A stretch of 64,000 bases of DNA from Escherichia phage inny: sequence record MN850601.1. One strand, written 5' to 3'. A model generated the notes under the pieces. The model saw only the letters and a list, made by a program, of their open reading frames with translations, ran no database searches and was not told the DNA's origin. Positions 11,446-13,974 of the stretch are shown here, piece by piece. Both the position numbers and the translations under genes were made by a program. The first letter of the stretch is position 1. Each line of letters opens with the position of its first letter.

Positions 11446-11521
11446 GGTTCCATAGCTCACTGACGAGAGCGCACACCTCATAAGTGTCGAGGGCAGGGAT
11501 TGTAACCCTGGGGAACCACCA
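11446..11521 (+). tRNA. tRNA-Met/Ile2-type (anticodon CAT), non-canonical T-loop
   Basis: hand-folded cloverleaf: acceptor GGTTCC/GGAACC, D-stem GCTC/GAGC, anticodon loop CTCATAA, encoded CCA; T-loop ATTGTAA (A54, T58) instead of TTCGAAT. Confidence 0.6.
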
Positions 11522-11640: not shown

Positions 11641-11746
11641 GCCTAGTAGGGTATTTGGTAATTCCGAGGCCATCAAAGCCTGAAAAATATGTTAGACCGT
11701 TTTGTCTAACTAAATACGAAATATGGTTCGATTCCATAACTAGGCT
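11641..11746 (+). tRNA. atypical 106-nt tRNA-like element (candidate anticodon TCA)
   Basis: perfect 7-bp acceptor GCCTAGT/ACTAGGC, D-like arm with GG loop, 4-bp stem with loop CATCAAA, extra 7-bp hairpin GTTAGAC-CGTTTT-GTCTAAC, canonical T-arm TATGG-TTCGATT-CCATA; no CCA encoded; too long for a standard tRNA. Confidence 0.3.
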
Positions 11747-11821: not shown

Positions 11822-11903
11822 CGGGGTGTATCTCACCTGACTTCTAATCAGGCGTTAACCGAGTAATTGGAGTATGCAGGTTCGAATCCTGTCACCCCGG
11901 CCA
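11822..11903 (+). tRNA. tRNA-Arg-like (anticodon TCT) lacking a canonical D-arm
   Basis: acceptor CGGGGTG/CACCCCG, only 7 nt (TATCTCA) before a perfect anticodon arm CCTGA-CTTCTAA-TCAGG, 23-nt variable region with CCGA-GTAA-TTGG hairpin, T-arm GCAGG-TTCGAAT-CCTGT, G73, CCA. Confidence 0.45.
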
Positions 11904-13555: not shown

Positions 13556-13562
13556 ATATTTA

Positions 13563-13643: not shown

Positions 13644-13718
13644 GCAGAGATAGCTGAGACGGATTAGTGCTACCCTGAAAAGGTAGAAAGGATGGATCGT
13701 TACCATCTCTCTGCACCA
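13644..13718 (+). tRNA. tRNA-Phe (anticodon GAA), non-canonical T-loop
   Basis: perfect acceptor GCAGAGA/TCTCTGC, perfect anticodon arm CTACC-CTGAAAA-GGTAG, T-arm GATGG-ATCGTTA-CCATC (A54 and T58 swapped relative to consensus), A73, CCA. Confidence 0.7.
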
Positions 13719-13895: not shown

Positions 13896-13974
13896 CGCGG
13901 GATAGAGGAGTCTGGTCGTCCTCGCCAGTTTCATATGCTGGAGATCGTAGGTTCAAATCCTACTCCCGTTACCA
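13896..13974 (+). tRNA. tRNA-Met/Ile2-type (anticodon CAT), second copy, unpaired 1-72
   Basis: acceptor CGCGGGA/TCCCGTT with C1 opposite U72, D-arm GAGG-(11 nt)-CCTC, anticodon arm CCAGT-TTCATAT-GCTGG, T-arm GTAGG-TTCAAAT-CCTAC, A73, CCA. Confidence 0.65.

Follow-up and report, generated by a model that had tools for sequence, protein, structure and literature searches.

In the canonical T-loop of tRNA, U54 and A58 are paired in trans Watson-Crick/Hoogsteen fashion, in the company of pseudouridine 55 (Psi55), C56, a purine at position 57 (R57) and a pyrimidine at position 60 (Y60). Both U54 and A58 have been described as universal, with the A54-A58 pair of the eukaryotic initiator as the exception (PMC7912444). 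Single mutations at U54 or A58 inactivate a yeast suppressor tRNA, and a high-throughput study found none of them tolerated (PMC4117946). Here we analysed a 64,000-nucleotide stretch of Escherichia phage inny (MN850601.1), called the window below, in which two tRNA genes on the + strand carry A54 and U58: a tRNA-Phe(GAA) gene (13644..13718) and a gene for a tRNA with the anticodon CAU (11446..11521). As judged by sequence comparison, the reversed 54-58 pair, coupled to A60, appears to be an undescribed T-loop form that is characteristic of mobile and phage tRNAs. With a probability of roughly 70%, both genes encode functional tRNAs in which positions 54, 58 and 60 make up an alternative T-loop core; the variant would be near-neutral or mildly advantageous, tolerated by the scaffold, and no dedicated counter-defence device. 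A full-text literature search, beyond whose reach much of the older phage-tRNA literature lies, returned no paper describing A54-U58, and neither the Sf14 phage-tRNA paper nor the L-array paper was found to mention variation in the T-loop. A 2003 study in Nucleic Acids Research (NAR) on the 54-58 pair reportedly obtained U-A, G-A and G-G by in vivo selection.

Among the closest described T-loops is that of the eukaryotic initiator tRNA-Met, which contains A54, A58 and A60 and forms a purine-purine Hoogsteen pair between A54 and A58 (PMC7912444). The window tRNAs resemble it in having A54 for U54 and A60 for the pyrimidine, and loops exactly like the initiator's (ATCGAAA) do occur in neighbouring phage tRNAs. 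Different from the initiator, they have U58 instead of A58, the site of 1-methyladenosine (m1A58), and the combination of A54, A58 and A60 was found in neither of them. They are a bacterial-phage elongator, Phe, and a CAU tRNA that lacks initiator features, and they have no evolutionary link to the initiator. The tRNA-Phe also shares A20, part of the A20/A54/A60 cluster of the initiator.

The tRNA-Phe of phage T5 is the lineage member on which biochemical work has been reported. It resembles the tRNA-Phe of the window in its D arm, including A20, its 4-nt variable loop and its discriminator A, and its anticodon arm has tandem U.U mismatches. Its T-loop is TTCAATT (U54, A58, U60), whereas the window phage and the sister genus Epseptimavirus have ATCGTTA. 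According to a review (PMC9976931), E. coli PheRS recognises T5 tRNA-Phe, and the recognition depends on Mg2+. Since T5 tRNA-Phe belongs to the same lineage, in the U54/A58 state, its recognition may be taken as indirect support for the scaffold, despite A20 in place of U20.

Around the finding, 4 kb of the window share 97-99% identity with coliphages of the phi92 type (Justusliebigvirus, Stephanstirmvirinae), among them phi92, VEcB, alia and outra, and the phage is a phi92-like Justusliebigvirus. ARAGORN identified 15 tRNA genes between 11446 and 14196, all on the + strand and all with an encoded CCA end. Thirteen of them have the T-loop TTCRANT; the exceptions are tRNA-Phe and the first CAT tRNA. 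The tRNA-Phe gene matches the Rfam tRNA model RF00005 over its full length (model positions 1-71) and scores 49.2 bits, where the gathering score is 29. Its T arm (13691..13707, + strand) consists of the stem GATGG/CCATC and the loop ATCGTTA, and ARAGORN, the Rfam model and the minimum-free-energy (MFE) fold all give the same 7-nt loop at 13696-13702. In the Rfam alignment, AUCGUUA lies column by column on the consensus UUCgAaU, which places A54 at 13696 (canonical U54), U58 at 13700 (canonical A58) and A60 at 13702 (canonical pyrimidine), all on the + strand. Like the canonical T-loop, it is a 7-nt loop closed by G53-C61 with U55, C56 and G57, it is accompanied by G18 G19, and positions 54 and 58 covary; it differs in A54/U58, in A60 and in that 5-methyluridine at position 54 (m5U54) is impossible. 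The preliminary description of this DNA had reported A54 and U58 in the loops ATCGTTA and ATTGTAA, and its reading is upheld by ARAGORN and the MFE fold for both genes and by Rfam for tRNA-Phe. No fold defined by these tools, and no other register, puts T54 and A58 elsewhere. In the tRNA-Phe DNA, G53 and A54-U55-C56 (GGATCG) give a GATC site of the Dam or DpnII type at 13695-13698; the corresponding place in the CAU gene (11498-11501, GGATTG, with the U56 variant) has none. The GATC site is probably incidental.

The D arm of tRNA-Phe (13651..13669, + strand) comprises U8 A9, G10-G13, the loop AGACGGAU, U22-U25 and G26, with the G13.U22 wobble, A20 and U21 as the lineage signature. BLAST searches found orthologues with 77-88% identity in Epseptimavirus (T5-like), Novosibvirus (Proteus), Kagamiyamavirus (T4-like), Vequintavirinae (Klebsiella BIS47), Acinetobacter phages, Caeruleovirus (Bacillus) and Citrobacter Tr1; a related query traced the lineage to 608 phage records, Listeria and Streptomyces phages among them. 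All nine orthologues that were extracted have the identical D arm TAGCTGAGAYGGATTAG and a variable loop of 4 nt, while their acceptor and anticodon stems vary in a compensatory way. We defined the lineage by the exact D arm TAGCTGAGAYGGATTAG, a 4-nt variable loop, the anticodon GAA and T59, and the tRNA-Phe of the window has all four. Eight of the nine orthologues have the T-loop ATCGTTA; the ninth, from BIS47, has TTCGATA, and outside 54/58 its scaffold shares 87% identity with that of the window, the two loops differing at positions 54 and 58 alone. T5-like phages hold both states, TTCAATT in T5, TTCGATA in many Tequintavirus and ATCGTTA in the Epseptimavirus phages phiR2-01 and SB9. The core of the lineage has further oddities, with invariant G13.U22, U21 in place of A21, A20, and a variable loop that ends with G48 opposite G15. 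Many members (T5-like, EcS1, BIS47) also show tandem U.U mismatches at 28-42 and 29-41, together with G37 in place of A37.

To obtain a larger set, IMG/VR and GTDB genomes were scanned with the D-arm pattern (at least 120 matching stretches in each), so that the T-loop was not used in retrieval, and tRNAs were parsed by stem complementarity alone. Among 89 unique well-formed members (viral sequences plus BLAST orthologues), positions 54/58 were A-T in 45, T-A in 25, C-A in 13, A-A in 3, G-C in 2 and G-A in 1. When the genome set was added, the 181 unique members comprised T-A 97, A-T 53, C-A 21, A-A 3, G-C 2, G-G 2, A-C 2 and G-A 1. U58 occurs solely with A54 in these 181 tRNAs and in ~3,000 others, and U-U is absent from the family sets. 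In alignment A1, which holds 85 members without gaps, the pair was AU in 45, UA in 22, GC in 2 and another combination in 16. Its covariation score was 0.63, compared to 0.16 for shuffled columns (0 of 500 shuffles reached 0.63), and partners slid by 1-3 columns scored no more than 0.09. The covariation in this ortholog alignment strongly supports the earlier proposal that the exchange of 54 and 58 is compensatory. Members that are 89-96% identical outside 54/58 differ as T-A versus A-T, and single-linkage clustering at 85% identity yields at least five clusters in which the two states coexist. By Fitch parsimony on a neighbour-joining tree, ~20 changes between A-T and the other states are counted, a rough figure because the tree rests on 70 columns. 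The swap thus arose repeatedly among near-identical tRNAs, rather than in one inherited event. Its recurrence in orthologues from unrelated phage families, together with the covariation, argues that A54/U58 reflects neither chance nor decay.

Position 60 was not part of the preliminary description, nor were the horizontally inherited family trait and the compensation of U56 by A19 in the CAT tRNA. All 63 purine-54 members of the family have A60, whereas pyrimidine-54 members have A60 in 43 of 118 and otherwise U or C. The same coupling is seen outside the family. Among ~1,270 unique non-family tRNAs called by ARAGORN in viral loci, 38 (~3%) have A54/U58; they represent 16 named isoacceptor types plus two unassigned and come from 24 loci. 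A60 is found in 27 and U60 in none of these 38, compared to 85% U60 in canonical loops, and position 59 is A in 17, U in 12, G in 5 and C in 4. A further 17 viral-locus tRNAs combine A54 with A58 and, for the most part, with A60, as in the eukaryotic initiator tRNA (PMC7912444). For position 20, which follows GG in the D-loop, no clear link to the A54 class emerged among non-family tRNAs. One non-family case is the tRNA-Ile(GAU) of Yersinia phage phiR2-01 (14692-14765 of its locus), with the T-loop ATCGTAA.

The CAU tRNA has a non-canonical elbow, and its CCA end is encoded. Its T-loop ATTGTAA (11499..11505, + strand) was assigned by ARAGORN, with A54 at 11499, U56 at 11501, U58 at 11503 and A60 at 11505, and U55, G57 and A59 between them; the MFE cloverleaf is concordant. 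Its D-loop ACTGACGA (11459..11466, + strand), as read by comparison with homologues, contains C15 (11460), facing G48, as well as G18 (11462) and A19 (11463). Its two distant homologues, from Salmonella phage SSBI34 (Vequintavirinae) and the T4-like Erwinia phage FBB1, combine the D-loop ACTGGYGA with the T-loop ATCGTAA; in the window, ACTGACGA is found with ATTGTAA. A54, U58, A59 and A60 are common to all three. The elbow pair G19:C56 of the homologues has become A19:U56 in the window, with both sides changed in what is a single event among three sequences. This double change supports the loop register and a formed elbow. That this gene encodes a tRNA is judged from ARAGORN, the fold, the CCA end in the gene and the comparison with homologues. 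It is a candidate for a Met-type tRNA reading AUG or, after lysidine formation, an Ile2-type tRNA reading AUA; a chromosomal relative in E. coli that could tell Met from Ile2 was sought, with no match. A search for more homologues with the D-arm pattern TAGCTCACTGNNGAGAGC returned identical copies and unrelated tRNAs only. The Levitt pair of the CAU tRNA is seemingly reversed (C15 at 11460 facing G48 at ~11493) in the window and in both homologues, with the D-loop numbering uncertain. A His-like tRNA in an IMG/VR contig has the same D arm together with the T-loop ATCGTAA. For the CAU gene, a reading of the T arm on the minus strand (TTACAAT, resembling T54..A58) was rejected, as the CCA end and the cloverleaf are on the + strand as in the neighbouring genes. 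Minus-strand matches to the Rfam family Plastid-ycf2 are mirror images of tRNAs at several loci.

The purine-54/pyrimidine-58 states A-U and G-C look Watson-Crick-like, and position 59 is also U in the Phe family. A54 might accordingly be Watson-Crick-paired in cis to U58 or U59; such pairing would extend the T stem, leave a tri- or tetraloop, abolish the T-loop motif as well as the elbow and point to a non-canonical or non-translational role. We consider such a fold improbable. U55, C56, R57 and G18 G19 are conserved in A54-type tRNAs, and the 19:56 double change of the CAU tRNA is sensible only when the elbow is formed. Position 59 is variable outside the family, so a 54-59 pair is not conserved, and A-A, A-C and G-G cannot form cis Watson-Crick pairs. 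The MFE fold keeps the 7-nt loop open; a 3-nt hairpin loop closed by A-U is thermodynamically unfavourable. The shifted motifs U55..A59, A54-U59 and U55-A60 were likewise rejected, since beyond the Phe family position 59 lacks conservation.

In the architecture that we propose instead, A54 would pair with U58 inside the loop, opposite in orientation to the canonical U54.A58 reverse-Hoogsteen pair, with A60 replacing the pyrimidine. Both the physical A54-U58 pairing and the charging of tRNA-Phe with Phe and its use in translation are inferred from comparison. A54-type tRNAs keep U55, C56 (or U56 with A19), R57, G53-C61 and G18/G19, and with these the loop can still dock on the D-loop and form the elbow. 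The geometry of the pair may be either trans Hoogsteen/Watson-Crick or trans Watson-Crick/Watson-Crick. With the former, the reversed pair would fail to superimpose on U54.A58 and the backbone would have to adjust, which A60 may accommodate. The Levitt pair R15-Y48, a tertiary pair of trans Watson-Crick/Watson-Crick geometry, alternates between G-C and A-U; the R54-Y58 states A-U (53 members) and G-C (2 members) recall this two-state pattern and by analogy suggest that 54-58 may have the same geometry. Different from the Levitt pair, 54-58 lies inside a 7-nt loop instead of joining the D and variable loops, and A-C, G-G, A-A and G-A occur too. A54 cannot be methylated to m5U54, the product of TrmA at this site, and the transcript is therefore predicted to contain no m5U54.

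The alternative state would predate this phage, its tRNA-Phe coming from a horizontally mobile lineage of phages and bacterial arrays. As A60 is present in all purine-54 members, the order of events is suggested to be A60 first: TTCGATT, which is common in bacterial arrays, may have changed to TTCGATA, then to ATCGATA and finally to ATCGTTA. Flips between U54/A58 and A54/U58 recurred, probably via A54/A58 intermediates such as ATCGATA, of which three were observed.

Several observations weigh against this reading. The evidence on A54/U58 members is comparative throughout. The viral sample was seeded by the Phe D-arm pattern, and its frequencies are no unbiased census. The 54-58 pair is not strictly Watson-Crick-like, and the additional states C-A, A-A, A-C, G-G and G-A mean that the scaffold may simply tolerate loose pairing. 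ARAGORN missed four of the nine extracted orthologue genes, and many tRNAs of the A54/U58 type escape it. RF00005 gave no match to the CAU gene even at E<=10 in a 106-nt search, because U56, A19, A54, U58 and C15 facing G48 are all penalised by the covariance model, and the distant homologues of this tRNA number two only. Bacterial PheRS identity elements include the GAA anticodon and A73, and the E. coli enzyme additionally uses U20, U59, U45, 10-25 and 26:44 (PMC9976931). The tRNA-Phe of the window has G34 A35 A36, A73 and U59; two E. coli determinants (PMC9976931) are missing, with A20 for U20 in the whole lineage and G10.U25 in the window copy. Finally, the phi92 tRNA-Phe is flagged pseudo in RefSeq, where the VEcB copy is a pseudo 'tRNA-Leu-GAA'.

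These RefSeq flags, the label 'hypothetical tRNA' that RefSeq gives to the CAU gene, its missing Rfam match and the presence of D-armless and Sec-like tRNA-like elements in the cluster would all fit decay, in which both loci are tRNA pseudogenes or tRNA-like leftovers among other aberrant elements. Decay is nevertheless very improbable, since the tRNA-Phe score is far over the gathering score and the stems are compensated as is unexpected for pseudogenes. In the 85 homologues, 96.3% of the cells in the four cloverleaf stems are paired, with a score of 0.818 compared to 0.169 for shuffles. Changes on both sides were found in 16 of the 21 stem pairs, or in 16 of the 17 variable pairs of the acceptor, anticodon and T stems. 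The lineage has also kept its GAA anticodon, A73 and the CCA end in the gene. The 75-nt tRNA-Phe gene is 100% identical in ~54 phi92-like phage records (BLAST) and the CAU gene in ~50, and over ~50 phi92-like genomes both genes are 100% conserved with flanks only 96-99% identical. The 19:56 change of the CAU gene is also compensatory. Stem covariation and conservation thus argue for functional tRNAs and not pseudogenes.

Mobile tRNA array units, or L-arrays, of bacteria were known previously (PMC4758250, PMC8421152). Nearly all GTDB matches of the D-arm pattern fall within densely packed tRNA arrays (median 19 tRNAs in an 8-kb locus), and the hosts include Acidobacteriota (Pyrinomonadaceae, Blastocatellia), Planctomycetota, Actinomycetota and others. 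The arrays with this D arm reach 34 tRNAs in 8 kb (loci L129-L248). Bacterial arrays thus carry the same horizontally mobile tRNA-Phe lineage as phages, and this shared lineage links phage tRNA clusters with bacterial tRNA array units. The A54/U58 swap of the window is a family trait inherited via horizontal transfer, not a local event. Different from the phage members, family members in the arrays mostly have a canonical loop, with T-A in 72 of 93 unique sequences, usually as TTCGATT, and A-T in 9 of 93; among non-family array tRNAs, A-T occurs in 11 of 1,739 (0.6%). Within the family, A-T was counted in 45 of 89 viral members compared to 7 of 105 array members in a per-locus tally (Fisher; odds ratio ~14), the figure of 9 of 93 being the recount by unique sequence. 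Outside the family, the comparison is 38 of ~1,270 to 11 of 1,739 (odds ratio ~5). From these samples, which are neither independent nor unbiased, A54/U58 appears enriched in viral contigs.

This enrichment, inside as well as outside the family, is what would be expected if the variant served evasion, A54/U58(/A60) making the phage tRNA a poor substrate for T-loop readers such as TrmA, TruB, toxins and defence nucleases, so that tRNA-Phe survives an attack on host tRNAs. By established chemistry, A54 is also not methylatable to m5U54. A Burkholderia CdiA-CT toxin reportedly cleaves between T54 and Psi55. Phage tRNAs escape tRNA-targeting defences through anticodon-loop changes (PMC10264068) or as variant tRNAs, such as T5 tRNA against PARIS (PMC11464382). 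The tRNAs described here resemble them in being off-consensus at a conserved site and phage-enriched; they differ in that the site is in the T-loop and that 2 of the 15 tRNAs are affected. A general T-loop threat should select on all 15 tRNAs, and close relatives (T5, many Tequintavirus and BIS47) have the same tRNA with U54/A58; on these two counts, evasion is weakened. In addition, the state flips to and fro, as near-neutrality would give, and the literature search found no phage-defence nuclease that reads T-loop bases, Cas12a3 contacting the T-arm backbone only. We regard evasion as unlikely. A broader version, in which A54-U58-A60 is a distinct, undescribed and under-annotated architecture preferred by phages and arrays, whose elbow is fully functional in the absence of m5U54 and possibly of Psi55 and which is invisible to T-loop-reading host proteins, as a general tRNA-level strategy of counter-defence or host independence beyond the anticodon loop, seems doubtful to us as well.

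Selection could also act on the DNA, if the double change shielded the tRNA gene from homing (HNH) endonucleases with conserved tRNA-gene sequence as their target and the compensation in the RNA were the price of function. HNH genes are interspersed in such clusters, one of them ~80 bp upstream of tRNA-Phe in VEcB, and T5 has hegA, hegC and hegD in its tRNA region; T4 SegB prefers to cut inside tRNA genes (PMC8421152 citing PMC2330249). However, in a crude tblastn survey with five HNH proteins, the two states did not differ in the presence of an HNH-like open reading frame within 1.5 kb (A-T 6 of 31, T-A 5 of 18). The A60 coupling and the exclusive pairing of U58 with A54 are signatures of RNA structure, and no endonuclease with a target in T-loop-coding DNA was documented in this analysis. 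Shielding of the DNA is thus highly improbable, the least probable of the explanations considered, and functional tRNAs with an alternative T-loop core are preferred.

The cluster of the window contains further unusual elements on the + strand. A tRNA-like gene at 11822-11900 scores 38.6 bits with RF00005 (gathering score 29), and ARAGORN made no call there; it is without annotation in phi92 and VEcB. Its anticodon loop is CUUCUAA (UCU, Arg) and its T arm is canonical, with 4 nt in place of the 15-nt D arm and an insertion of ~20 nt in the variable region. The element at 11641-11745 is tRNA-Sec-like, with 29.4 bits for RF01852, under the gathering score of 47. It has the anticodon loop CAUCAAA (UCA; A33 replaces U33), a variable arm of ~36 nt and the canonical T-loop TTCGATT, and it may compare with what the T5 annotation lists as 'tRNA-like stable RNAs' in the tRNA region. 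The second CAT tRNA (13896-13974) has the canonical T-loop TTCAAAT but an unusually long D arm or loop; in ARAGORN its D-loop measures 11 nt and the 1-72 ends are unpaired. In some close relatives, such as VEcB (locus L268, 2863-3222), an HNH endonuclease gene lies between tRNA-Gln and tRNA-Pro; the window phage does not have it, and a 7-nt spacer at 13556-13562 occupies the place of the VEcB insertion.

Annotation is affected by the A54/U58 form, as pipelines flag such genes as pseudo, mis-assign them (tRNA-Leu-GAA, or tRNA-Glu for a copy of this tRNA-Phe in another phage record) or miss them. For structural biology, the tRNAs provide a natural test case for the tolerance of the T-loop motif when its key pair is reversed. 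They would constitute a tRNA class without T54 by design, and they may be a testable candidate for host independence or defence evasion at the level of tRNA outside the anticodon loop. A54/U58 with A60 is a natural, recurrent and co-varying alternative to the canonical T-loop, common in phage-borne tRNAs and present in about half of one pan-phage tRNA-Phe lineage.

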